Below are positions 10,900-42,306 of a DNA stretch of 64,000 bases, in pieces. Each line of letters opens with the position of its first letter. Within the stretch, counting starts at the first letter, position 1. Both the position numbers and the translations under genes were made by a program. Below the pieces are notes generated by a model. The model did not search any database and had not been told where the DNA came from. It saw nothing but the letters and a program-made list of their open reading frames with translations. Where the stretch lies: the NCBI RefSeq assembly GCF_044324785.1, contig NZ_CP172127.1; one strand, 5' to 3'. This DNA is from Escherichia coli. GTDB lineage: Bacteria > Pseudomonadota > Gammaproteobacteria > Enterobacterales > Enterobacteriaceae.

Positions 10900-11160
10900 T
10901 CTTCGACGTTACAAACCGCACGGGTGTTGGTGGCGTCAAAATCGCTGAAGCGTTCCCCGAAGGCCGGGGCAGCCCACATGGATGTGGGCTGAGGGCGCGT
11001 CTTACAGGACGTTACCTCGCGCCCGACCCGGTAGCCGAAGGGGATAAGCTGAAGGCACCGCGCAGCGGCGATTTTGTTCGCCAGAGCCCGGGGGTGCAGG
11101 GGGCGGCGGCGACTGGCCGCCCCCTGCGCGCTCCCTGCGCCAGTGGCTTTATATGGCATT
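10900..11160. repeat. GC-rich cluster of stem-loops in the aqpZ–lysO intergenic region (REP-like or structured RNA candidate)
   Basis: Perfect hairpins cagcccaca/tgtgggctg (10970-10991) and gcagggggcgg/ccgccccctgc (11096-11127) in ~260 bp of high-GC non-coding DNA. Confidence 0.4.
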
Positions 11161-11320
11161 GCACATGAAAGGAGCGCAACAATGCTAAACACTCATATAG
11201 AATTAAAAATCCCCCTCTGATGCATAACATTTCCTTTTAATTGCAACTTTACTCGTCCTTCCGCTTTCAGTAGTGTGTCATCGCGCATTTCGACTTCATC
11301 TTTGCAAGGACTGGGTTTTC

Positions 11321-12220
11321 ATGTTTTCTGGGCTGTTAATCATTCTGGTTCCCCTGATTGTGGGTTACCTCATTCCGCTTCGCCAAAAAGCTGCATTAAA
11401 AGTTATTAATCAGCTATTAAGCTGGATGGTTTACCTTATTCTCTTTTTTATGGGTATCAGTCTGGCGTTTCTCGATAACCTCGCCAGTAACCTGTTGGCG
11501 ATTCTGCATTATTCTGCCGTCAGTATTACCGTTATTTTACTGTGTAATATTGCCGCCCTTATGTGGCTGGAGCGAGGCCTGCCATGGCGCAACTACCACC
11601 AGCAAGAAAAACTCCCGTCGCGTATTGCGATGGCGCTGGAGTCGCTAAAACTGTGCGGCGTAGTAGTGATTGGTTTTGCCATTGGCCTGAGTGGACTGGC
11701 TTTCTTACAACATGCGACCGAAGCCAGTGAATACACCTTAATTCTGCTACTTTTCCTCGTCGGTATTCAGTTGCGCAATAATGGCATGACCTTAAAGCAG
11801 ATTGTCCTTAATCGCCGGGGAATGATTGTCGCCGTGGTGGTGGTTGCCAGTTCATTAATTGGTGGTTTAATTAACGCCTTTATTCTTGATCTTCCCATCA
11901 ATACCGCGCTGGCAATGGCCTCCGGTTTCGGCTGGTATTCTCTTTCCGGTATTTTATTGACCGAATCTTTTGGTCCGGTAATCGGGAGCGCGGCGTTTTT
12001 TAATGATCTGGCCCGTGAGCTGATTGCAATTATGTTGATCCCTGGGCTGATTCGCCGCAGCCGCTCTACCGCACTGGGCTTATGCGGTGCGACGTCGATG
12101 GATTTCACCCTGCCCGTTCTTCAACGTACTGGCGGGCTGGATATGGTCCCGGCGGCAATTGTTCACGGTTTTATTCTTAGCCTGTTAGTGCCGATCCTCA
12201 TCGCCTTTTTCTCTGCATAA
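11321..12220 (+). CDS. lysO: Lysine exporter LysO/YbjE (299 aa)
   Basis: Polytopic membrane protein starting MFSGLLIILVPLIVGYL; 299-aa form. Confidence 0.9.
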   Translation: MFSGLLIILVPLIVGYLIPLRQKAALKVINQLLSWMVYLILFFMGISLAFLDNLASNLLAILHYSAVSITVILLCNIAALMWLERGLPWRNYHQQEKLPSRIAMALESLKLCGVVVIGFAIGLSGLAFLQHATEASEYTLILLLFLVGIQLRNNGMTLKQIVLNRRGMIVAVVVVASSLIGGLINAFILDLPINTALAMASGFGWYSLSGILLTESFGPVIGSAAFFNDLARELIAIMLIPGLIRRSRSTALGLCGATSMDFTLPVLQRTGGLDMVPAAIVHGFILSLLVPILIAFFSA

Positions 12221-12253
12221 TACCTCTCTGGCGGTAGATCCCTGCCGCCAAAA

Positions 12254-12267
12254 TTGCGCTAAATCAA
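12254..12267 (+). promoter_or_regulatory. Candidate FNR half-site pair upstream of hcp (TTGCGctaaATCAA)
   Basis: Close to the TTGAT-N4-ATCAA consensus; hcp is known to be anaerobically induced. Confidence 0.35.
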
Positions 12268-12325
12268 TCTCCCTTAAAGTTGCATAAAAAATCCCTTTTA
12301 TCCCCGCGTTAAGCGTCTTAACCTT

Positions 12326-12348
12326 AAACATGTATATTAAATATAACT
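12326..12348 (+). promoter_or_regulatory. Candidate NsrR operator in the hcp leader (aacATGTATATTaAATATAactt)
   Basis: AT-rich inverted repeat resembling the NsrR consensus as I remember it; hcp-hcr is an NsrR target. Confidence 0.35.
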
Positions 12349-12363
12349 TTAAAAGGTGTGATC

Positions 12364-14016
12364 ATGTTTTGTGTGCAATGTGAACAAACTATCCGTACTC
12401 CGGCAGGAAACGGCTGCTCATACGCGCAGGGGATGTGTGGTAAAACGGCGGAAACCTCTGACCTTCAGGATTTACTCATCGCGGCGCTGCAAGGGCTTTC
12501 GGCCTGGGCGGTAAAAGCGCGTGAATACGGCATCATCAACCACGATATAGACAGCTTTGCGCCACGCGCATTTTTCTCAACCCTGACCAACGTTAACTTC
12601 GATTCTCCGCGTATTGTCGGCTACGCTCGTGAAGCAATTGCCCTGCGCGAGGCGCTGAAAGCACAATGCCTGGCTGTAGATGCCAACGCCCGCGTCGATA
12701 ACCCGATGGCTGACCTGCAACTGGTGAGCGATGATCTCGGCGAGCTGCAACGTCAGGCGGCAGAATTTACCCCTAACAAAGATAAAGCGGCGATTGGCGA
12801 AAACATTCTCGGCCTGCGTCTGCTGTGCCTGTATGGCCTGAAAGGTGCGGCGGCCTATATGGAACACGCGCATGTTCTCGGTCAATACGACAACGATATT
12901 TACGCCCAGTACCATAAAATCATGGCGTGGCTGGGAACCTGGCCTGCCGATATGAACGCGCTTCTTGAGTGTTCAATGGAAATCGGCCAGATGAACTTCA
13001 AAGTGATGAGCATTCTGGACGCAGGCGAAACCGGTAAATACGGTCACCCGACCCCAACCCAGGTCAACGTCAAAGCGACGGCAGGTAAATGCATTCTGAT
13101 TTCCGGTCACGATCTCAAAGATCTCTACAACCTGCTGGAACAGACCGAAGGCACGGGCGTTAATGTCTACACCCACGGTGAAATGCTGCCTGCGCATGGC
13201 TACCCGGAGCTGCGTAAATTCAAGCATCTGGTCGGTAACTACGGCAGCGGCTGGCAGAATCAGCAAGTGGAGTTCGCTCGTTTCCCTGGCCCCATCGTGA
13301 TGACCTCGAACTGCATCATCGACCCAACCGTAGGCGCTTATGACGATCGTATCTGGACCCGCAGTATCGTTGGCTGGCCGGGTGTGCGTCATCTGGATGG
13401 CGAAGATTTCTCTGCGGTCATCGCCCAGGCGCAACAAATGGCGGGCTTCCCGTACAGCGAAATTCCGCACCTGATCACCGTGGGCTTTGGTCGTCAAACG
13501 CTGCTTGGCGCAGCGGATACGCTGATTGACCTGGTAAGCCGTGAAAAACTGCGTCATATCTTCCTGCTTGGCGGCTGTGACGGCGCACGCGGCGAGCGTC
13601 ACTATTTCACCGATTTCGCCACCAGCGTGCCGGATGACTGTCTGATCCTGACTCTCGCCTGTGGTAAATATCGCTTTAACAAACTCGAGTTTGGCGATAT
13701 CGAAGGTCTGCCGCGTCTGGTAGATGCTGGTCAGTGTAACGATGCTTACTCAGCGATTATTCTGGCGGTAACGCTGGCAGAAAAACTGGGCTGCGGTGTC
13801 AACGATCTGCCGCTGTCGCTGGTGCTCTCGTGGTTTGAACAGAAAGCGATTGTCATTCTGCTGACACTGCTTTCTCTGGGTGTGAAAAATATCGTCACCG
13901 GCCCTACTGCACCAGGTTTCCTGACACCAGACCTGCTGGCGGTGCTGAACGAGAAATTCGGCCTGCGTTCTATCACCACTGTTGAAGAAGACATGAAGCA
14001 ACTGTTGAGCGCGTAA
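12364..14016 (+). CDS. hcp: Hybrid-cluster protein / hydroxylamine reductase Hcp (550 aa)
   Basis: N-terminal Cys motif MFCVQCEQT; length and sequence as in K-12. Confidence 0.96.
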
Positions 14017-14027
14017 GGAGTTTGTCG

Positions 14028-14996
14028 ATGACGATGCCAACGAATCAATGCCCGTGGCGGATGCAGGTTCATCACATCACGCAAGAAACGCCGGATGTGT
14101 GGACGATTTCCCTGATTTGCCACGATTACTACCCATATCGCGCCGGGCAATATGCACTGGTCAGCGTGCGAAACTCAGCGGAAACGCTGCGTGCTTACAC
14201 CATTTCCTCCACGCCAGGCGTCAGTGAATACATCACCCTGACTGTGCGGCGGATTGATGACGGTGTCGGCTCCCGGTGGCTGACGCGCGATGTAAAACGC
14301 GGTGATTATCTCTGGCTTTCGGACGCGATGGGGGAATTTACCTGCGACGATAAAGCAGAAGATAAATTCCTGTTGCTGGCGGCAGGCTGCGGCGTCACGC
14401 CGATTATGTCGATGCGTCGCTGGCTGGCGAAGAACCGTCCGCAGGCCGATGTGCAGGTGATCTACAACGTGCGTTCGCCGCAGGATGTTATTTTCGCCGA
14501 TGAGTGGCGCAACTATCCGGTGACGCTGGTGGCAGAAAATAACGTTACCGAAGGCTTTATCGCTGGTCGTCTCACTCGCGAACTGCTGACTCGCGTTCCT
14601 GACTTAGCTTCACGTACCGTGATGACCTGCGGCCCGGCTCCGTATATGGATTGGGTAGAGCAGGAAGTGAAAGCGCTCGGCGTGACGCGTTTCTTTAAAG
14701 AGAAATTCTTCACCCCAGTAGCGGAAGCGGCGACCAGCGGTCTGAAATTCACCAAACTGCAACCGGCACGAGAATTTTACGCCCCGGTTGGCACCACGCT
14801 ACTGGAGGCGCTGGAAAGCAATAAAGTTCCGGTTGTCGCCGCCTGCCGTGCAGGTGTTTGCGGCTGCTGTAAGACGAAAGTGGTTTCCGGTGAATATACG
14901 GTGAGCAGCACAATGACGCTGACCGACGCCGAAATCGCTGAAGGTTACGTGCTGGCCTGCTCCTGCCATCCGCAGGGAGATTTGGTTCTCGCATAA
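14028..14996 (+). CDS. hcr: NADH oxidoreductase Hcr (FAD/2Fe-2S; 322 aa)
   Basis: C-terminal ferredoxin motif CRAGVCGCC; 11-bp gap after hcp suggests an operon. Confidence 0.95.
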   Translation: MTMPTNQCPWRMQVHHITQETPDVWTISLICHDYYPYRAGQYALVSVRNSAETLRAYTISSTPGVSEYITLTVRRIDDGVGSRWLTRDVKRGDYLWLSDAMGEFTCDDKAEDKFLLLAAGCGVTPIMSMRRWLAKNRPQADVQVIYNVRSPQDVIFADEWRNYPVTLVAENNVTEGFIAGRLTRELLTRVPDLASRTVMTCGPAPYMDWVEQEVKALGVTRFFKEKFFTPVAEAATSGLKFTKLQPAREFYAPVGTTLLEALESNKVPVVAACRAGVCGCCKTKVVSGEYTVSSTMTLTDAEIAEGYVLACSCHPQGDLVLA

Positions 14997-15128
14997 TCGC
15001 CTTATGCCCGATGATATTCCTTTCATCGGGCTATTTAACCGTTAGTGCCTCCTTTTTCTCCCATCCCTTCCCCCTCCGTCAGATGAACTAAACTTGTAAC
15101 CGTTATCACATTCAGGAGATGGAGAACC

Positions 15129-16847
15129 ATGAAACAAACGGTTGCAGCTTATATCGCCAAAACACTCGAATCGGCAGGCGTGAAACGCATCTGGGGAGTC
15201 ACGGGCGACTCTCTGAACGGTCTTAGCGACAGTCTTAATCGCATGGGCACCATCGAGTGGATGTCCACCCGCCATGAAGAAGTGGCGGCCTTTGCCGCTG
15301 GCGCTGAAGCACAACTTTCAGGAGAACTGGCGGTCTGTGCCGGGTCGTGCGGCCCCGGCAACCTGCACTTAATCAACGGCCTGTACGATTGCCACCGCAA
15401 TCACGTTCCGGTACTGGCGATTGCCGCTCATATTCCCTCCAGCGAAATTGGCAGCGGCTATTTCCAGGAAACCCACCCACAAGAGCTATTCCGCGAATGT
15501 AGTCACTATTGCGAGCTGGTTTCCAGCCCGGAGCAGATCCCACAAGTGCTGTCGATTGCCATGCGCAAAGCGGTGCTTAACCGTGGCGTTTCCGTTGTCG
15601 TGTTACCGGGCGACGTGGCGTTAAAACCTGCGCCAGAAGGGGCAACCTCGCACTGGTATCATGCGCCACAGCCAGTCGTGACGCCGGAAGAAGAAGAGTT
15701 ACGCAAACTGGCGCAACTGCTGCGTTATTCCAGCAATATCGCCCTGATGTGTGGCAGCGGCTGCGCGGGGGCGCATAAAGAGTTAGTTGAGTTTGCCGGG
15801 AAAATTAAAGCGCCTATTGTTCATGCCCTGCGCGGTAAAGAACATGTCGAATACGATAACCCGTATGATGTCGGAATGACGGGATTAATCGGCTTCTCGT
15901 CAGGTTTTCACACTATGATGAATGCCGACACGTTAGTGCTACTCGGTACTCAGTTCCCCTACCGCGCCTTCTACCCGACCGATGCCAAAATCATTCAGAT
16001 TGATATCAACCCAGCCAGCATCGGCGCTCACAGCAAGGTAGATATGGCACTGGTCGGCGATATCAAGTCGACTCTGCGTGCATTGCTGCCATTGGTGGAA
16101 GAAAAAACCGATCGCAAGTTTCTGGATAAAGCGCTGGAAGATTACCGCGACGCCCGCAAAGGGCTGGACGATTTAGCTAAACCGAGCGAGAAAGCCATTC
16201 ACCCGCAATATCTGGCGCAGCAAATTAGTCATTTTGCCGCCGATGACGCCATCTTTACCTGTGACGTCGGCACGCCAACGGTGTGGGCGGCACGTTATCT
16301 GAAAATGAACGGCAAGCGTCGTCTGTTAGGTTCGTTTAACCACGGTTCGATGGCTAACGCCATGCCGCAGGCGCTGGGTGCGCAGGCAACCGAGCCGGAA
16401 CGTCAGGTGGTCGCCATGTGCGGCGATGGCGGTTTTAGCATGTTGATGGGCGATTTTCTCTCAGTAGTGCAGATGAAACTGCCGGTGAAAATTATCGTCT
16501 TTAATAACAGCGTGCTGGGCTTTGTGGCGATGGAGATGAAAGCAGGTGGCTATTTGACTGACGGCACCGAACTACACGACACCAACTTTGCCCGCATTGC
16601 CGAAGCGTGCGGCATTACGGGTATTCGTGTAGAAAAAGCCTCTGAAATCGATGAAGCCCTGCAACGCGCCTTCTCCATCGACGGTCCGGTGTTGGTGGAT
16701 GTGGTGGTCGCCAAAGAAGAGTTAGCCATTCCACCGCAGATCAAACTCGAACAGGCCAAAGGATTTAGCTTGTATATGTTGCGCGCAATCATCAGCGGAC
16801 GCGGTGATGAAGTGATCGAACTGGCGAAAACGAACTGGCTAAGGTAA
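15129..16847 (+). CDS. poxB: Pyruvate oxidase PoxB (ubiquinone-dependent pyruvate dehydrogenase; 572 aa)
   Basis: TPP-binding motif CGDGGFSM; 572 aa. Confidence 0.96.
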
Positions 16848-16883
16848 AAAGGGTGGCATTTCCCGTCATAATAAGGACATGCC

Positions 16884-17885
16884 ATGATTGATTTACGCAG
16901 TGATACCGTTACCCGACCGAGCCGCGCCATGCTCGAAGCAATGATGGCCACCCCGGTTGGGGACGACGTTTACGGAGACGACCCTACCGTTAATGCTCTG
17001 CAGGACTATGCGGCAGAGCTTTCCGGTAAAGAAGCCGCCATTTTTCTGCCTACCGGCACTCAGGCCAACCTGGTCGCTCTGCTCAGTCACTGCGAACGCG
17101 GCGAAGAGTATATCGTCGGTCAGGCCGCGCATAATTATCTGTTTGAAGCCGGTGGCGCAGCGGTGCTGGGCAGTATTCAACCGCAACCTATCGACGCGGC
17201 TGCTGACGGTACGCTACCGCTGGATAAAGTGGCGATGAAAATCAAACCCGACGATATCCATTTCGCCCGCACCAAATTACTCAGTCTGGAAAACACCCAC
17301 AACGGCAAAGTGTTGCCGCGTGAATACCTTAAAGATGCATGGGAATTTACCCGCGAGCGCAATCTGGCGCTGCATGTGGACGGTGCGCGCATCTTTAATG
17401 CCGTGGTGGCTTACGGCTGCGAACTAAAAGAGATCACGCAATATTGTGATTCATTCACCATTTGTCTGTCGAAAGGTCTTGGTACGCCAGTCGGTTCGTT
17501 ACTGGTCGGTAAGCGTGACTACATTAAACGTGCAATTCGCTGGCGGAAAATGACAGGGGGCGGGATGCGCCAGTCCGGCATTCTGGCAGCCGCCGGGATG
17601 TATGCGCTGAAAAATAACGTCGCACGCTTGCAGGAAGATCATGACAATGCCGCCTGGATGGCGGAGCAGTTGCGTGAAGCAGGCGCGGATGTGATGCGTC
17701 AGGACACCAATATGCTGTTTGTTCGCGTCGGGGAAGAAAATGCTGCCGCGTTAGGCGAATACATGAAAGCGAGAAACGTGCTGATTAACGCCTCGCCGAT
17801 TGTCCGCCTGGTGACGCATCTCGACGTCTCGCGCGAGCAACTAGCTGAAGTCGCCGCCCACTGGCGCGCATTCCTGGCGCGTTAA
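16884..17885 (+). CDS. ltaE: Low-specificity L-threonine aldolase LtaE (333 aa)
   Basis: PLP-aldolase fold; start [12 protein letters not shown]. Confidence 0.95.
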
Positions 17886-17895
17886 GGAGGGAGAC

Positions 17896-19326
17896 GTGCC
17901 GCAACGCATTTTAGTTCTCGGTGCCAGTGGCTACATTGGTCAGCATCTGGTGCGAACTCTCAGCCAGCAAGGGCATCAGATCCTGGCGGCGGCACGTCAT
18001 GTCGACAAGCTTGCAAAGCTGCAACTGGCAAACGTCAGTTGCCATAAAGTCGATCTCAGCTGGCCGGATAACCTTCCGGCCCTGTTGCAGGATATCGATA
18101 CGGTCTATTTTCTGGTGCACAGCATGGGCGAAGGCGGCGATTTTATCGCTCAGGAGCGCCAGGTGGCTCTCAACGTCCGCGATGCGCTACGCGAAGTCCC
18201 TGTTAAGCAATTAATCTTTCTCAGTTCGTTGCAGGCCCCGCCACATGAGCAGTCGGACCATCTGCGCGCCCGTCAGGCTACGGCGGATATTCTTCGTGAA
18301 GCGGGTGTCCCGGTGACCGAATTGCGTGCCGGAATAATCGTTGGCGCAGGTTCAGCGGCGTTCGAAGTCATGCGCGATATGGTCTACAACCTGCCAGTGT
18401 TAACGCCGCCACGCTGGGTTCGTTCACGCACCACGCCCATCGCGCTGGAAAACTTGCTGCACTATCTGGTGGCGCTGTTAGATCATCCGGCCAGCGAACA
18501 TCGCATCTTCGAAGCCGCCGGACCAGAAGTGCTCAGTTATCAGCAACAGTTTGAACATTTTATGGCGGTGAGCGGTAAGCGCCGCTGGTTGATCCCCATC
18601 CCCCTCCCCACCCGCTGGATTTCGGTGTGGTTTCTCAATGTGATTACTTCCGTACCGCCCACCACCGCCAGGGCGTTGATTCAGGGGCTGAAACATGATC
18701 TGCTGGCGGATGACACCGCACTACGTGCACTCATCCCACAACGGCTGATTGCTTTCGATGACGCGGTACGTCGCACCCTGAAAGAGGAAGAAAAGCTGGT
18801 CAACTCCAGCGACTGGGGATACGACGCTCAGGCCTTTGCCCGCTGGCGACCGGAGTACGGTTATTTCGCCAAACAAGCGGGGTTTACCGTTAAAACGTCT
18901 GCCAGACTTGCGGCTTTATGGCAGGTGGTGAATCAAATCGGCGGTAAAGAGCGTTATTTCTTTGGCAATATTTTGTGGCAAACCCGGGCGTTGATGGACC
19001 GCGCGATCGGTCATAAGCTGGCGAAAGGCCGCCCGGAGCGTGAATATTTGCAGACCGGCGATGCGGTGGATAGCTGGAAAGTGATTGTCGTTGAACCGGA
19101 AAAACAACTTACGCTGTTATTTGGCATGAAAGCGCCGGGGCTGGGACGACTGTGTTTTACCCTGGAAGATAAAGGCGACTATCGTACTATCGATGTTCGT
19201 GCATTCTGGCATCCGCACGGTATGCCGGGGCTGTTTTACTGGTTATTGATGATCCCCGCGCATCTGTTTATTTTTCGCGGAATGGCAAAACAAATCGCCA
19301 GACTGGCAGAACAAAGCACAGATTAA
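17896..19326 (+). CDS. ybjT: Putative NAD(P)-binding protein YbjT (476 aa)
   Basis: GTG start preceded by aaggaggga RBS; Rossmann motif VLGASGYIG. Confidence 0.88.
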
Positions 19327-19424
19327 TCGACAAAACCTGCGTTATTCTTTCATGTTTCCCATTGCATCATGGGGGAAATCACGGAAGAATGCGCACGTCA
19401 TTTTCTCAACAACAGTGGATTGAT

Positions 19425-20438
19425 ATGAAGGTACTGGTTACCGGCGCCACCAGCGGCTTAGGTCGAAACGCGGTAGAGTTTTTATGCCAGAAAGGCATCA
19501 GCGTGCGAGCGACCGGTCGCAACGAGGCAATGGGTAAATTGCTGGAAAAAATGGGCGCAGAGTTTGTTCCGGCGGATCTGACCGAGCTGGTCTCATCACA
19601 AGCTAAAGTGATGCTCGCGGGCATTGATACGCTGTGGCACTGCTCCAGCTTTACCTCGCCCTGGGGGACACAACAGGCTTTCGATCTGGCTAACGTTCGC
19701 GCCACTCGCCGCCTGGGTGAATGGGCTGTCGCCTGGGGTGTGCGTAACTTTATTCATATCTCTTCACCCTCCCTGTACTTCGATTATCACCACCATCGCG
19801 ATATTAAAGAAGATTTTCGCCCTCACCGCTTCGCTAACGAGTTTGCCCGCAGCAAAGCAGCCAGCGAAGAAGTGATCAATATGCTTTCGCAGGCGAATCC
19901 ACAAACGCGCTTTACTATTCTGCGCCCACAAAGTCTGTTCGGACCGCACGATAAAGTCTTTATCCCCCGTCTGGCGCATATGATGCACCACTACGGCAGC
20001 ATTCTGTTACCACACGGCGGCAGTGCGCTGGTCGATATGACCTACTATGAAAATGCCGTGCACGCCATGTGGCTAGCAAGCCAGGAAGCCTGCGATAAGC
20101 TACCTTCCGGGCGTGTGTACAACATCACCAACGGCGAGCATCGCACACTGCGCAGCATCGTGCAGAAGCTGATCGACGAGTTGAATATTGACTGTCGTAT
20201 TCGTTCCGTCCCCTACCCGATGCTGGATATGATCGCCCGCAGCATGGAGCGTTTAGGCCGCAAGTCAGCAAAAGAGCCGCCGCTGACCCACTACGGCGTC
20301 TCCAAGTTGAATTTTGACTTTACGCTGGATATTACGCGTGCGCAGGAAGAGTTAGGTTATCAACCAGTCCTCACCCTGGATGAAGGTATCGAGAAAACTG
20401 CCGCCTGGCTACGCGACCACGGAAAACTGCCGCGCTAA
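19425..20438 (+). CDS. ybjS: NAD-dependent epimerase/dehydratase-family protein YbjS (337 aa)
   Basis: Rossmann motif [13 protein letters not shown]; stop overlaps the convergent amiD stop. Confidence 0.9.
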
Positions 20439-21265
20439 TCCTGCCCGTATTTCTCCAGCAACGCTTCGGCAATCGCCTGAGTTTCTGCATCCGCTTCGCC
20501 GTTGTATAACGTCGGGCGGAAATGCATCTGGAACGCCATAATCACGCGCCGCTGCTCGCGCGGTGTCATATCAGGTTTAACGTCATAACCGTAGCGCGCC
20601 AAAAGCTCCAGTAATGATGCGGTATCTACCGGTGTGTGCGGCGCGCGCCCGGCAAGGTAAAAGTTCACCCGCTGCGCATCCGGCCAGGCACCAATCCCCT
20701 GCTGCGCCAGTTGTTGCCAGGGGAATAACGGCCCCGGATCGTCTTTGCGCTGCGGCGCAATATCCGCATGCGCCACTACGTTTTCCGGCTTGATGTGATA
20801 ACGGGCAATAATATCTTTCGCCAGCGGAATAAGCGCCTGAATCTGTGCCTGTTCAAACGGGGCAAAATATTTCACTCCGGATGATTTTTGCCAGCCACGG
20901 TTTTCCAGCTCAATGCCAATAGAGGTGTCGTTAAGACGCGTTGCCCCGCGCCAGGCGCTAATCCCCGCATGCCAGGCCAGCTCCTGTTCCGGCACCAGTT
21001 GCCAGATGCGCGGTTTACCGTTGTATCGCGGTGGCACAGCAGGGACCAGATAATGCGAACTGACCTGCTTATCGGTCAGTGTCGCCAGCGAGCTATCAAA
21101 ATCATCTGCGGTGTAGTGGATCACCAGCACTTTAATGCGCGGATACGCCGCCTGTGCCTGGCGTCGGGTATCAAGCTGATATCCCTCTTTCTCGACAATG
21201 CCTTTTTCGCCTGCACACCCTGCCAGTAACAGAGCGACAGCGATCAGCCAGAAGACTCTTCTCAT
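20435..21265 (-). CDS. amiD: N-acetylmuramoyl-L-alanine amidase AmiD, lipoprotein (276 aa)
   Basis: Lipobox LLAGCAG; amidase_2 fold; overlaps ybjQ by 4 bp. Confidence 0.94.
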
Positions 21266-21585
21266 CGACGCGTTTTCACCGCCGTACCGCTGACGCTAAC
21301 CATCAGCATACTGCCGTTTTGCCCGACCGTTTCGTAGTCGATATCAATACCAACCACGGCATCGGCCCCCAGTGCCCGGGCCTGGGAGCCTAGTTCCTCA
21401 AAGGCGATCTCCCGCGCTTTACGTAGCTCTTTTTCGTAGGCCCCGGAGCGTCCACCAACGATATCGCGGATACCGGCAAAGAAATCACGGAAAATATTGG
21501 CACCTAAAATCGCTTCGCCGGTCACCACACCGCAATATTCGACGATGGTCTGGCCTTCCAGAGTTGGGGTTGTAGAAAATTGCAT
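21262..21585 (-). CDS. ybjQ: UPF0145 family protein YbjQ (107 aa)
   Basis: 107-aa ORF upstream of and overlapping amiD. Confidence 0.92.
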
Positions 21586-21599
21586 GATCGATCTCCTTG

Positions 21600-38617: not shown

Positions 38618-40303
38618 GTGAATATAAACGTCGCCGAATTGTTAAATGGGAATTACATTCTGTTATTATTTGTGGTCCTCGCGCTTGGGCTATGTCTCGG
38701 GAAATTACGACTTGGTTCGATCCAACTGGGTAATTCCATTGGCGTTTTGGTCGTATCACTGTTATTAGGCCAACAACATTTCAGCATTAACACCGACGCG
38801 CTTAATCTTGGCTTTATGCTGTTTATTTTCTGCGTCGGGGTCGAAGCCGGACCGAACTTTTTTTCCATTTTTTTTCGCGATGGGAAAAATTACCTAATGT
38901 TAGCACTGGTGATGGTTGGCAGTGCGCTGGTGATCGCCTTAGGGTTAGGTAAGCTGTTTGGCTGGGATATTGGCCTGACGGCCGGTATGTTAGCAGGCTC
39001 TATGACGTCAACACCGGTTTTGGTCGGTGCTGGCGATACACTGCGTCATTCCGGCATGGAAAGCAGGCAGCTCTCACTGGCACTGGATAATCTGAGCCTC
39101 GGGTATGCCTTAACCTATTTAATCGGTCTGGTGAGTTTAATTGTTGGTGCGCGTTACTTGCCGAAATTGCAGCATCAGGACTTACAGACCAGCGCCCAGC
39201 AAATCGCCCGCGAACGTGGCCTGGACACTGATGCCAACCGTAAGGTTTATTTACCGGTGATCCGCGCCTACCGCGTCGGCCCGGAGCTGGTAGCCTGGAC
39301 CGACGGCAAAAATCTGCGTGAACTGGGTATTTATCGACAAACTGGCTGTTACATTGAACGTATTCGGCGTAACGGGATTCTGGCAAATCCAGACGGTGAT
39401 GCCGTACTACAAATGGGCGATGAAATAGCGTTGGTAGGCTATCCTGACGCCCACGCCCGACTCGATCCCAGTTTCCGTAATGGCAAAGAAGTTTTCGATC
39501 GTGACCTTCTCGACATGCGTATCGTCACTGAAGAAGTGGTCGTTAAAAACCATAACGCTGTTGGCAAACGCCTGGCACAACTGAAGTTGACCGATCACGG
39601 TTGCTTCCTTAACCGCGTCATTCGTAGCCAGATTGAGATGCCGATTGATGACAACGTCGTGCTTAACAAAGGTGACGTTTTACAAGTCAGCGGCGATGCC
39701 CGCCGGGTAAAAACCATCGCCGATCGCATCGGCTTTATCTCGATTCACAGCCAGGTCACTGACTTGCTGGCATTCTGCGCCTTCTTTGTTATTGGGCTGA
39801 TGATCGGGATGATCACCTTCCAGTTCAGCACATTCAGTTTCGGTATGGGGAACGCTGCCGGGTTGTTATTCGCCGGAATTATGCTGGGCTTTATGCGTGC
39901 TAACCACCCGACCTTCGGTTACATTCCGCAGGGTGCATTAAGCATGGTGAAGGAGTTCGGCTTGATGGTGTTTATGGCAGGCGTTGGTCTGAGCGCTGGT
40001 AGCGGTATTAATAACGGCCTGGGCGCGATTGGCGGTCAGATGTTGATTGCCGGATTGATTGTCAGTCTGGTGCCCGTGGTTATCTGCTTCTTGTTCGGTG
40101 CTTATGTATTGCGAATGAACCGCGCACTGTTGTTCGGCGCAATGATGGGCGCACGCACCTGCGCGCCGGCAATGGAGATCATCAGTGATACAGCTCGCAG
40201 TAATATCCCGGCGCTGGGCTATGCGGGCACTTACGCAATCGCCAACGTCCTGCTGACGCTGGCAGGGACAATCATCGTCATGGTATGGCCAGGATTAGGA
40301 TAA
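38618..40303 (+). CDS. ybjL: Putative transporter YbjL (AAE family; 561 aa)
   Basis: Two membrane halves separated by a central soluble region; 561 aa. Confidence 0.92.
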
Positions 40304-40339
40304 AACTGAAGTTGCCCTGAAAATGAAATTTTTTTGCAC

Positions 40340-40379
40340 AACCGCAGAACTTTTCCGCAGGGCATCAGTCTTAATTAGT
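40340..40379 (+). promoter_or_regulatory. Sigma-E promoter of rybB
   Basis: -35 GAACTT (40347-40352) and -10 TCTTA (40369-40373) with 16-nt spacer, immediately upstream of the RybB 5' end. Confidence 0.6.
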
Positions 40380-40458
40380 GCCACTGCTTTTCTTTGATGT
40401 CCCCATTTTGTGGAGCCCATCAACCCCGCCATTTTGGTTCAAGGTTGGTGGGTTTTTT
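40380..40458 (+). ncRNA. rybB: RybB small regulatory RNA (sigma-E dependent, Hfq-binding; ~79 nt)
   Basis: GCCACUGCUUUUCUUUGAUGUCCCCAUUUUGUGGAGCCCAUCAACC... ending in a terminator hairpin and U6; located between ybjL and rcdA as in K-12. Confidence 0.88.
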
Positions 40459-40477
40459 GTTATCTAAAATTTATCTA

Positions 40478-41014
40478 CTACCCTGCAACCCTCTCAACCA
40501 TCCTCAAAATCTCCTCGCGCGATAGCGGCTTACGGTCGGTGACAAAATGCAGCGTCATCCCCTCAATAAACGCATCAAGCGCGCGGGCGGTTCCGGGTTC
40601 AAACCATTGTTCGAGCGTTTGCTGACTGCGCTGCATCCAGTTTTGCATTACCGTTTTTAATAGCGGTTTTCGGCTAGCCAGCGCGTAGAGCTGGTACATC
40701 AGCTCCATGTTATCCGGCGTTGCAACCTGTGAGCTGTAAATCATATCGGTGATAGCCTGGCATGCGCCTTGAGCATCACTAACATCGCTAAAAAATGCCT
40801 GATATTGCCGGGACATGATCTCAGTAAAACTGCTGAACGCCTCCAGCAACAACTCATCAATTCCTGAAAAATAGTAGGTCATCGACCCCAACGGTACCCC
40901 GGCAAGGGTAGCAATTTTGCGGTGCGTAACAGCATGTATTCCATAAAGTTTCACCGCCTCCAGCGTGGCCTGGATAATTTTTTCTCGCCGTTGCGGATCG
41001 TTAGCGCGACGCAT
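40478..41014 (-). CDS. rcdA: TetR-family regulator RcdA/YbjK (178 aa)
   Basis: N-terminal TetR helix-turn-helix; start [14 protein letters not shown]. Confidence 0.93.
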
Positions 41015-41097
41015 GTCATTTCCTCTCTCTGCAATTGTGTACAAATGTACACAACCTTGCTAATGTTGTCTTCCCTCTTCTTATTTTGACGTGATCT

Positions 41098-42306
41098 ATG
41101 ACCGTAAATTCTTCACGTAATGCATTGAAACGCCGAACCTGGGCGCTGTTTATGTTCTTCTTTTTGCCGGGCCTGTTAATGGCGTCCTGGGCAACCCGTA
41201 CGCCTGCTATCCGCGATATTCTTTCTGTTTCGATCGCTGAAATGGGCGGAGTCCTCTTTGGTCTGTCGATCGGTTCAATGAGCGGTATTCTCTGCTCGGC
41301 GTGGTTAGTGAAACGCTTTGGGACGCGTAATGTCATCCTGGTCACGATGTCCTGCGCATTGATCGGGATGATGATACTAAGTCTGGCACTCTGGCTGACA
41401 TCGCCCCTGCTCTTCGCGGTTGGCCTCGGCGTCTTTGGGGCAAGTTTTGGTTCTGCGGAAGTGGCGATAAACGTTGAAGGTGCCGCCGTTGAGCGAGAAA
41501 TGAATAAAACGGTTTTGCCGATGATGCACGGTTTTTATAGCCTGGGCACGCTGGCAGGCGCTGGTGTCGGGATGGCACTGACGGCTTTTGGCGTTCCGGC
41601 AACGGTGCACATTTTATTGGCGGCGCTGGTAGGTATCGCGCCTATTTATATCGCCATTCAGGCAATCCCTGACGGTACGGGCAAAAATGCTGCCGATGGC
41701 ACCCAGCATGGCGAAAAAGGCGTTCCTTTTTATCGCGATATCCAGTTGCTGCTGATCGGTGTTGTGGTGCTGGCGATGGCCTTTGCCGAAGGTTCTGCCA
41801 ACGACTGGTTACCCTTATTAATGGTTGACGGTCACGGTTTTAGCCCTACTTCCGGCTCGCTGATTTATGCCGGTTTTACCCTGGGGATGACCGTTGGACG
41901 CTTCACTGGCGGTTGGTTCATCGACCGTTACAGTCGCGTTGCCGTGGTTCGGGCCAGTGCACTAATGGGGGCGTTGGGTATTGGGCTGATTATTTTTGTC
42001 GATAGCGCCTGGGTCGCTGGGGTGTCTGTTGTACTCTGGGGACTGGGTGCCTCGCTGGGCTTCCCGCTGACCATTTCTGCCGCCAGCGATACCGGCCCCG
42101 ATGCACCAACCCGCGTCAGTGTGGTAGCAACGACCGGTTATCTGGCTTTCCTCGTCGGGCCGCCACTGCTGGGCTATCTCGGCGAACATTATGGATTACG
42201 TAGTGCAATGCTGGTTGTACTGGCGCTGGTTATTCTCGCGGCTATTGTCGCGAAAGCCGTCGCCAAACCCGATACCAAAACGCAGACGGCGATGGAGAAT
42301 AGTTGA
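41098..42306 (+). CDS. ybjJ: MFS transporter YbjJ (402 aa)
   Basis: 12-helix MFS-like hydrophobicity; stop overlaps the ybjI start (TGATG). Confidence 0.92.

Follow-up and report, generated by a model that had tools for sequence, protein, structure and literature searches.

The plus-strand interval 40380-40458 of the window (the whole 64-kb stretch of E. coli DNA that was analysed) is almost certainly rybB, the gene of a 79-nt Hfq-dependent small RNA, and it would be transcribed from a sigma-E promoter located at approximately 40320-40379. The two bases by which its RNA departs from that of K-12, U56 and G69, are most likely neutral. This is an already known, ordinary and functional-looking RybB gene, intact and in its usual place. 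RybB is one of the best-studied enterobacterial sRNAs; to find it intact in E. coli is only to be expected and matters little beyond the completeness of annotation, and the branch of the envelope-stress response that runs from sigma-E through RybB to the porins can be assumed present in the strain under study. A mildly useful by-product of the analysis is that the 3' end of rybB serves as an attachment site for P2-family prophages, which is empty here.

Identity and genomic position of rybB

A cmscan search of the 64-kb window against Rfam 15 gave one match at gathering threshold, to the RybB family (RF00110) at 40383-40461 (+). The match scores 104.8 bits, which is 2.6 times the gathering score of 40, with an E-value of 1.7e-20, and it spans model positions 1-79 of 79 without truncation. 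The search had been proposed as a check by an earlier sequence-only reading of this DNA, which placed an intact RybB with its promoter at 40340-40458; the second check it proposed, alignment to K-12 rybB, was carried out with the curated MG1655 gene (b4417), a 79-nt ncRNA at NC_000913.3 887979..888057 (-) between rcdA and ybjL. The MG1655 gene aligns to 40380-40458 (+) of the window over its 79 nt, with 77 of the 79 positions and the entire promoter identical, and no substantial divergence is seen. The K-12 transcription start (the G of GCCAC, +1) falls on 40380 and the K-12 3' end (the last U of the U6 tail) on 40458, which is also the end of the interval in the earlier reading. That interval therefore runs from -40 to +79 and comprises the core promoter plus the K-12-annotated RNA, while the Rfam model starts at RNA nt 4 and ends 3 nt beyond the annotated 3' end. 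Both checks thus sustain the claim of an intact gene.

In a 181-bp alignment, the locus shares every base with E. coli 2013C-4282 (100% identity), while its identity to K-12 is 98.3%. The rybB locus is present in 5,418 of the 5,426 complete E. coli genomes (99.9%), and in five of the 5,426 there is no match to the locus at all. A permissive local Rfam scan of 39800-41200 found nothing beyond RybB, and the Rfam scan gave no match to MicA, MicL, MicV or VrrA anywhere in the window.

That the stretch is a chance resemblance or the remnant of a pseudogene has practically no probability. We found no point in support of such a reading, and it is refuted by the full-length Rfam match and the K-12 alignment: the E-value, the full model coverage, the 97.5% identity to a curated gene in the syntenic position, the conserved promoter and the covarying stem described below all speak against it. 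Two small ORFs that overlap the RNA (40394-40525 +, 43 aa, with a TTG start; and 40295-40432 -, 45 aa) were themselves treated as chance; the first crosses the terminator and neither is supported.

The neighbours of rybB are ybjL, which shares its strand, and rcdA (ybjK). This is the intergenic region to which rybB has been assigned in the literature (PMC1804206) and where the earlier reading had put it. Upstream, ybjL (38618..40303, +) is a 561-aa ORF of the aspartate:alanine antiporter family (NF003440, 1178 bits against a cutoff of 645) that occupies the same position in K-12 and 2013C-4282. Downstream, the convergent rcdA (40478..41014, -) encodes a TetR-family regulator, as judged by TetR-family matches and by its same position in 2013C-4282 and K-12, and it is separated from the RybB 3' end by 19 nt, as in K-12. 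K-12 has the same gene order, ybjM-ybjL-rybB-rcdA-ybjJ-ybjI, in the opposite orientation. In the PGAP RefSeq entries for K-12 DHB4 and 2013C-4282, nothing is annotated between ybjL and rcdA, while the curated MG1655 record lists the ncRNA; the warning that an annotation restricted to coding sequences would miss rybB is borne out by these two records. Since automated PGAP annotation leaves the 174-bp gap blank, a non-coding RNA pass is needed to record the gene.

The sigma-E promoter

Upstream of +1, the window agrees with K-12 at all 84 aligned bases, a stretch that takes in the sigma-E boxes and an A/T tract. The -35 element GAACTTT lies at 40347..40353 (+), corresponding to -33 to -27, and the -10 region AGTCTTAA at 40367..40374 (+), corresponding to -13 to -6. 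The published sigma-E consensus is GGAACTTTT for the -35 box and GTCAAA for the -10 box (Papenfort et al. 2006, PMC1804206). The window reads AGAACTTTT at 40346-40354, matching the -35 consensus at eight of nine bases, and GTCTTA at 40368-40373, ending 6 nt before +1 (40380); this hexamer differs from the published GTCAAA at two positions, yet it is identical to that of the K-12 promoter. With 16 nt between GAACTT and TCTTA, the two boxes stand at the spacing of about 16 nt found in sigma-E promoters and are correctly placed upstream of the start site. From shuffles, the pattern GAACTT-N15-17-TCTNA would be expected 0.24 times per window; the 64 kb contain two copies of it, one of which is the rybB promoter at 40347-40373. 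The other, GAACTT-N16-TCTGA at 26085-26112 (-), lies antisense within artI (25693-26424 +) and is probably a chance occurrence, given the 0.24 expected per window.

For comparison across species, rybB loci were gathered by searching a single representative genome of each species for the first 20 nt of the RNA, which yielded 120 loci, 117 of them distinct, from Enterobacteriaceae, Yersiniaceae, Hafniaceae, Morganellaceae and others. When the 117 distinct loci are anchored on +1, positions -33 to -27 (GAACTTT) are 98-100% conserved and positions -13 to -10 (AGTC) 93-100%; A-7 is invariant (100%), and A-6 (95%), T-4, A-3 and T-1 fall within 93-100%. Between the boxes, the spacer varies freely, with no more than about 0.1-0.6 bits per column. 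At every conserved promoter column, the window has the consensus base. Such a pattern is what a promoter with two boxes at fixed spacing leaves in an alignment, and it reproduces the conservation of the sigma-E promoter described for Salmonella, Yersinia, Serratia, Klebsiella and others (PMC1804206). The -35 and -10 elements that the sequence-only reading had recognized are hence present, identical to K-12 and conserved across some 117 loci.

Further upstream, outside the interval of that reading, the A/T-rich tract AAAATGAAATTTTTTT occupies 40320..40335 (+), or -60 to -45. Among 118 distinct upstream sequences, columns -52 to -46 are 93-99% A/T, and the mean A/T content is 0.73 at -60 to -37 against 0.52 further upstream. 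Rhodius et al. (PMC3326320) modelled the contributions of UP elements at sigma-E promoters and described rybB as a strong competitor for RNA polymerase. From its composition and position, the tract is probably the UP element of the rybB promoter, and the functional promoter would then probably start about 20 nt upstream of 40340.

The rybB promoter is among the strongest sigma-E promoters (PMC3326320; PMC12249550), and rybB promoters have been described as matching the sigma-E consensus and as strictly sigma-E dependent (PMC1804206). This dependence was demonstrated with the promoter of Salmonella, and that of E. coli rybB serves as a sigma-E reporter (PMC1804206, PMC3326320, PMC12249550); for the promoter in the window, sigma-E dependence is to be expected from its sequence identity. 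A scan for sigma-70 promoters and simple terminators flagged neither the promoter nor the terminator of rybB, as it does not model promoters of ECF sigma factors and allows only loops of 3-8 nt. Finally, a 2025 report found that NsrR dampens rybB transcription with no robust binding to the promoter, and proposed a protein-protein effect on sigma-E (PMC12249550); for an effect of this kind, no additional DNA element is expected in the rybB promoter.

Seed and terminator of the RNA

In RybB, function resides in the 5' seed, while the 3' end provides a scaffold for Hfq binding and termination (PMC6694218). The 5' target-recognition domain of the window's RNA (40380..40404, +) is identical to K-12. 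It consists of the seed, nt 1-16, GCCACUGCUUUUCUUU (40380-40395), and a conserved block that extends to nt 25. The seed contains the motif CRCUGCUUUU, which is common to RybB and to the Vibrio sigma-E sRNAs MicV and VrrA and was enriched in selection experiments (PMC6694218), and it is unpaired in the minimum free energy (MFE) fold save for a weak 4-bp helix that involves nt 2-5. In the cross-species set, nt 1-20 are invariant by construction, being fixed by the search pattern, and are not independent evidence of seed conservation; nt 21-25, which lie outside the pattern, are 99-100% conserved. Given that the seed is identical, the window's RNA would be expected to have the same omp-mRNA targets as the known RybB, with Hfq-dependent repression taken from the literature.

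The 3' module (40413..40458, +) combines a Rho-independent terminator with the putative Hfq-binding region, and it has the hairpin and U tract typical of the RybB family. Its 10-bp core stem pairs 40416-40425 with 40443-40452, is extended by 3-4 bp at the apex and is followed by a U6 tail at 40453-40458. For the 46-nt module, the predicted MFE is -22.2 kcal/mol (z -4.3), a stability that none of 200 shuffles attained. RNAalifold, applied to 29 distinct RNAs, recovers the hairpin with compensatory double changes in 8 of the 16 predicted pairs. In the 10-bp core and 3-bp apical helix, 94.2% of the cells are paired, versus 17-47% when the partners are slid by 1-3 columns, and the covariation score of this stem was reached by none of 500 shuffles.

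A terminator scan of the plus strand from the ybjL stop codon (40303) to rybB found no terminator-like site; hence ybjL transcripts probably end at the RybB hairpin, which would thereby double as the ybjL terminator. On rcdA's strand, no U tract follows the hairpin, so that any read-through from rcdA would be antisense to RybB.

Two substitutions in the terminator hairpin

The sequence-only reading had described the locus as reading like that of K-12. This stands for the promoter and for RNA nt 1-55, which are identical to K-12; it does not stand for the RNA as a whole, in which two of the 79 positions differ (97.5% identity), both of them in the terminator hairpin. At RNA nt 56 (40435, +), in the apical region of the hairpin, the window has U where K-12 has C. 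At RNA nt 69 (40448, +), it has G where K-12 has A, which turns the fifth pair of the stem from U-A into a U.G wobble; this base is also the first of a prophage attachment core that is discussed below. A third difference from K-12, at 40470, lies in the spacer 12 nt downstream of the RNA.

Position 56 is variable between species, where U, C and A are all found, and U occurs in other genera as well (e.g. at loci L006 and L110). Of the 117 distinct loci, none but that of the window has G69. Nevertheless, a U.G at the fifth stem pair occurs in the RNAs of two other species (UG:3), and the pair covaries freely among A-U, U-A and U.G. The hairpin is predicted to fold at -22.4 kcal/mol with the K-12 sequence, -22.2 with that of the window, -22.8 with U56 alone and -21.8 with G69 alone, all in the same architecture; A69G by itself costs about 0.6 kcal/mol. 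At the DNA level, a search for inverted repeats found nothing here, as A69G splits a perfect repeat into arms of 4 and 5 bp that fall below the 6-nt seed of the search, while RNA folding keeps the stem through the U.G pair. An exact 32-mer that requires both variant bases is present in 153 of the 5,426 complete E. coli genomes, and G69 occurs together with another type of downstream spacer in 168 genomes. The U56+G69 combination is a natural minority allele and not a sequencing oddity.

These data bear on whether the gene is present but weakened, with the hairpin substitutions impairing termination, Hfq binding or RNA stability. Both differences from K-12 do fall within the terminator/Hfq module, and G69, which is unique to the window among the 117 loci, replaces a Watson-Crick pair by a wobble at a predicted cost of roughly 0.6 kcal/mol when taken alone. 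A defective allele is nonetheless very unlikely: the net predicted stability and the fold are unchanged (-22.2 versus -22.4 kcal/mol), the wobble is natural at this very stem position in other species, nt 56 varies across species, and the U6 tail and the seed are untouched. Moreover, the presence of U56+G69 in 153 genomes, and of G69 with the other spacer in 168, would be unexpected for a deleterious allele of a gene that is kept in 99.9% of genomes. With pairing preserved in the predicted fold, we regard the U56/G69 allele as most likely neutral.

A related proposition, that the U56/G69 RybB of this minority E. coli lineage is a functionally distinct allele, is a long shot. If it were true, the allele could alter read-through into rcdA antisense, the binding of Hfq to the 3' end or the half-life of the RNA, since G69 makes the fifth pair of the stem weaker and lies at one end of the attachment core, and it would tune the strength of the feedback between sigma-E and the porins in that lineage.

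Prophage attachment at the 3' end of rybB

The last 11 nt of rybB and the 3 nt downstream of it form an unoccupied P2-like prophage attachment core at 40448..40461, which matches the core ATGGGTTTTTTGTT of strain K71-77 at 13 of 14 bases. In K71-77 (locus L127), a degraded P2-like prophage of about 17 kb separates the rybB terminator from rcdA, and ATGGGTTTTTTGTT stands at both of its ends as an exact 14-bp duplication (L127 343-356 and 17319-17332). The same prophage carries, at L127 3371-7965, genes for a P-loop NTPase and for a protein with an HsdR N-terminal domain, with the portal gene on one side and, on the other, a short hypothetical ORF that precedes the replication endonuclease gene; cargo of this type is often linked to anti-phage defence hotspots in P2-like phages.

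Two further strains have a prophage at this place. In N73 (locus L125, NZ_CP189493.1 2992665-2999696), a phage integrase sits directly against rcdA, with the integrase-side junction at L125 3426-3532. A megablast search of the N73 genome found the promoter and 5' part of rybB nowhere; the match is confined to the final ~32 nt of the query (window 40449-40480). N73 may therefore represent a natural loss of rybB linked to the prophage. In FDAARGOS_497 (L130 2501-2816), an intact-looking P2-like prophage abuts rybB at the same junction, and this strain carries G69. The idea that the G at 40448 bars integration of P2-like phages was accordingly rejected. In addition, the annotated attR of Klebsiella phage 4LV2017 matches rybB. 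A literature search on rybB as a prophage site found no paper that names rybB.

These attachments, together with the probable role in ybjL termination, raise the question of whether the 3' hairpin is kept mainly as the ybjL terminator and a prophage attachment site, with the sRNA being secondary. In favour of this are the plus strand free of terminator-like sites between the ybjL stop (40303) and rybB, the coincidence of the last 11 nt of rybB plus 3 nt with the P2-like core of K71-77, and the prophages that abut the site in N73 and FDAARGOS_497. Such roles, however, come on top of the function of the sRNA, not in its stead. They can account neither for -35 and -10 boxes that hardly vary and keep a fixed distance from an invariant +1 nor for the invariance of the 25-nt 5' domain; in the window, the attachment site holds no prophage; and published genetics shows that RybB itself regulates omp mRNAs (PMC1804206, PMC6694218). 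We consider this account of the hairpin extremely unlikely, and we retain the reading of the locus as a sigma-E-driven sRNA gene.

The spacer between rybB and rcdA (40459-40477) exists in at least two types in E. coli. One, ATCTAAAA(C/T)TTA, is that of K-12 and of the window. At least 2,326 genomes, O157:H7 among them, carry the other, GCCTGAAATTTA, which extends beyond E. coli to E. albertii, E. whittamii and many other genera. Since GCCTGAAATTTA coincides with the phage-side arm of the junction of the P2-like prophage, the difference in spacer may be either a scar left by integration and excision or the ancestral state. To see whether G69 affects occupancy by prophages, genomes were counted by 32-mers that join each rybB allele to the presumed phage-side junction GTTGCCTGAAATTTA, which gave 2,158 for the A allele and 168 for the G allele. 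These counts are invalid for that purpose, since GTTGCCTGAAATTTA is also a common native spacer at empty sites (e.g. in A25 and O157:H7 PV15-279) and is found in E. albertii and E. whittamii as well.

Lineage of the window

Among complete E. coli genomes, the best match to window 30000-52000 is that of strain N3, with 99.1% identity over 22 kb, and outside the rybB stretch the window is 93-98% identical to 2013C-4282. The lineage of the window is therefore not closely represented among the complete genomes compared. A 17.5-kb segment from lysO to artJ (11217-28772) is 93.3% identical to 2013C-4282 with 20 gaps, while the neighbouring stretches are 97-98% identical; this segment may be recombinant. 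Between aqpZ and lysO, some 270 bp (10909-11181) align in inverted orientation, at 91.6% identity, to the corresponding place in 2013C-4282, which may reflect a small inversion or a repeat element.

Proposed role and comparison with known systems

In the window itself, the gene, its promoter boxes, its seed and its terminator are shown, each with evolutionary support, and no result speaks against reading the locus as rybB. The mechanism that follows was worked out in the orthologues of K-12 and Salmonella and is carried over to the window by sequence identity. When misfolded outer-membrane proteins accumulate, RseA would be degraded and sigma-E released. RNA polymerase with sigma-E would then bind the GAACTTT and GTCTTA boxes, 16 nt apart, and start at G 40380, probably aided by the upstream A/T tract. 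The single-stranded 5' end of the RNA, GCCACUGCUUUUCUUU, would pair with many omp mRNAs, such as ompC and ompA, and this pairing would block their translation and accelerate their decay. The porin load on the envelope would thereby be lowered, closing a negative feedback on sigma-E, and the 3' hairpin with its U tail would serve both to terminate transcription and to bind Hfq. In the published work, RybB accelerates the decay of omp mRNAs (PMC1804206); together with Hfq, it pairs through its 5' end with these mRNAs, and its loss raises sigma-E activity, as is characteristic of negative feedback (PMC1804206; PMC6694218). The sequence-only reading had gone further and taken the locus to show that the envelope-stress regulatory architecture is conserved. 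What the locus supports is the conservation of one node of the sigma-E regulon, rybB; the architecture as a whole is not shown by a single locus. The window does not contain rpoE/rseA, micA, micL or the omp targets.

The closest known counterpart is the rybB of K-12 MG1655, which has the same position between ybjL and rcdA, the same length of 79 nt, an identical 84 bp upstream, and the same hairpin architecture with its U6 tail; the window differs from it by C56U, A69G and the spacer base at 40470, and in predicted hairpin energy by 0.2 kcal/mol. Within the wider RF00110 family, which includes the RybB of Salmonella, the 5' domain and overall structure of the window's RNA fit the consensus, whereas its mid-stem and apical loop depart from it at positions that covary in the family. 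MicA and MicL of E. coli and MicV and VrrA of Vibrio cholerae are likewise sigma-E-driven, Hfq-dependent repressors of abundant envelope proteins (PMC6694218; PMC4102768), but they are different genes at different loci and with different scaffolds. Finally, the attachment site resembles other cases in which P2-family phages use the 3' ends of sRNA or tRNA genes: other E. coli strains have the rybB 3' end duplicated at the prophage ends, and on the rybB side the 3' end of the RNA stays intact. Unlike those occupied sites, the one in the window is unoccupied, with 19 nt between the end of RybB and the rcdA stop codon, as in K-12.
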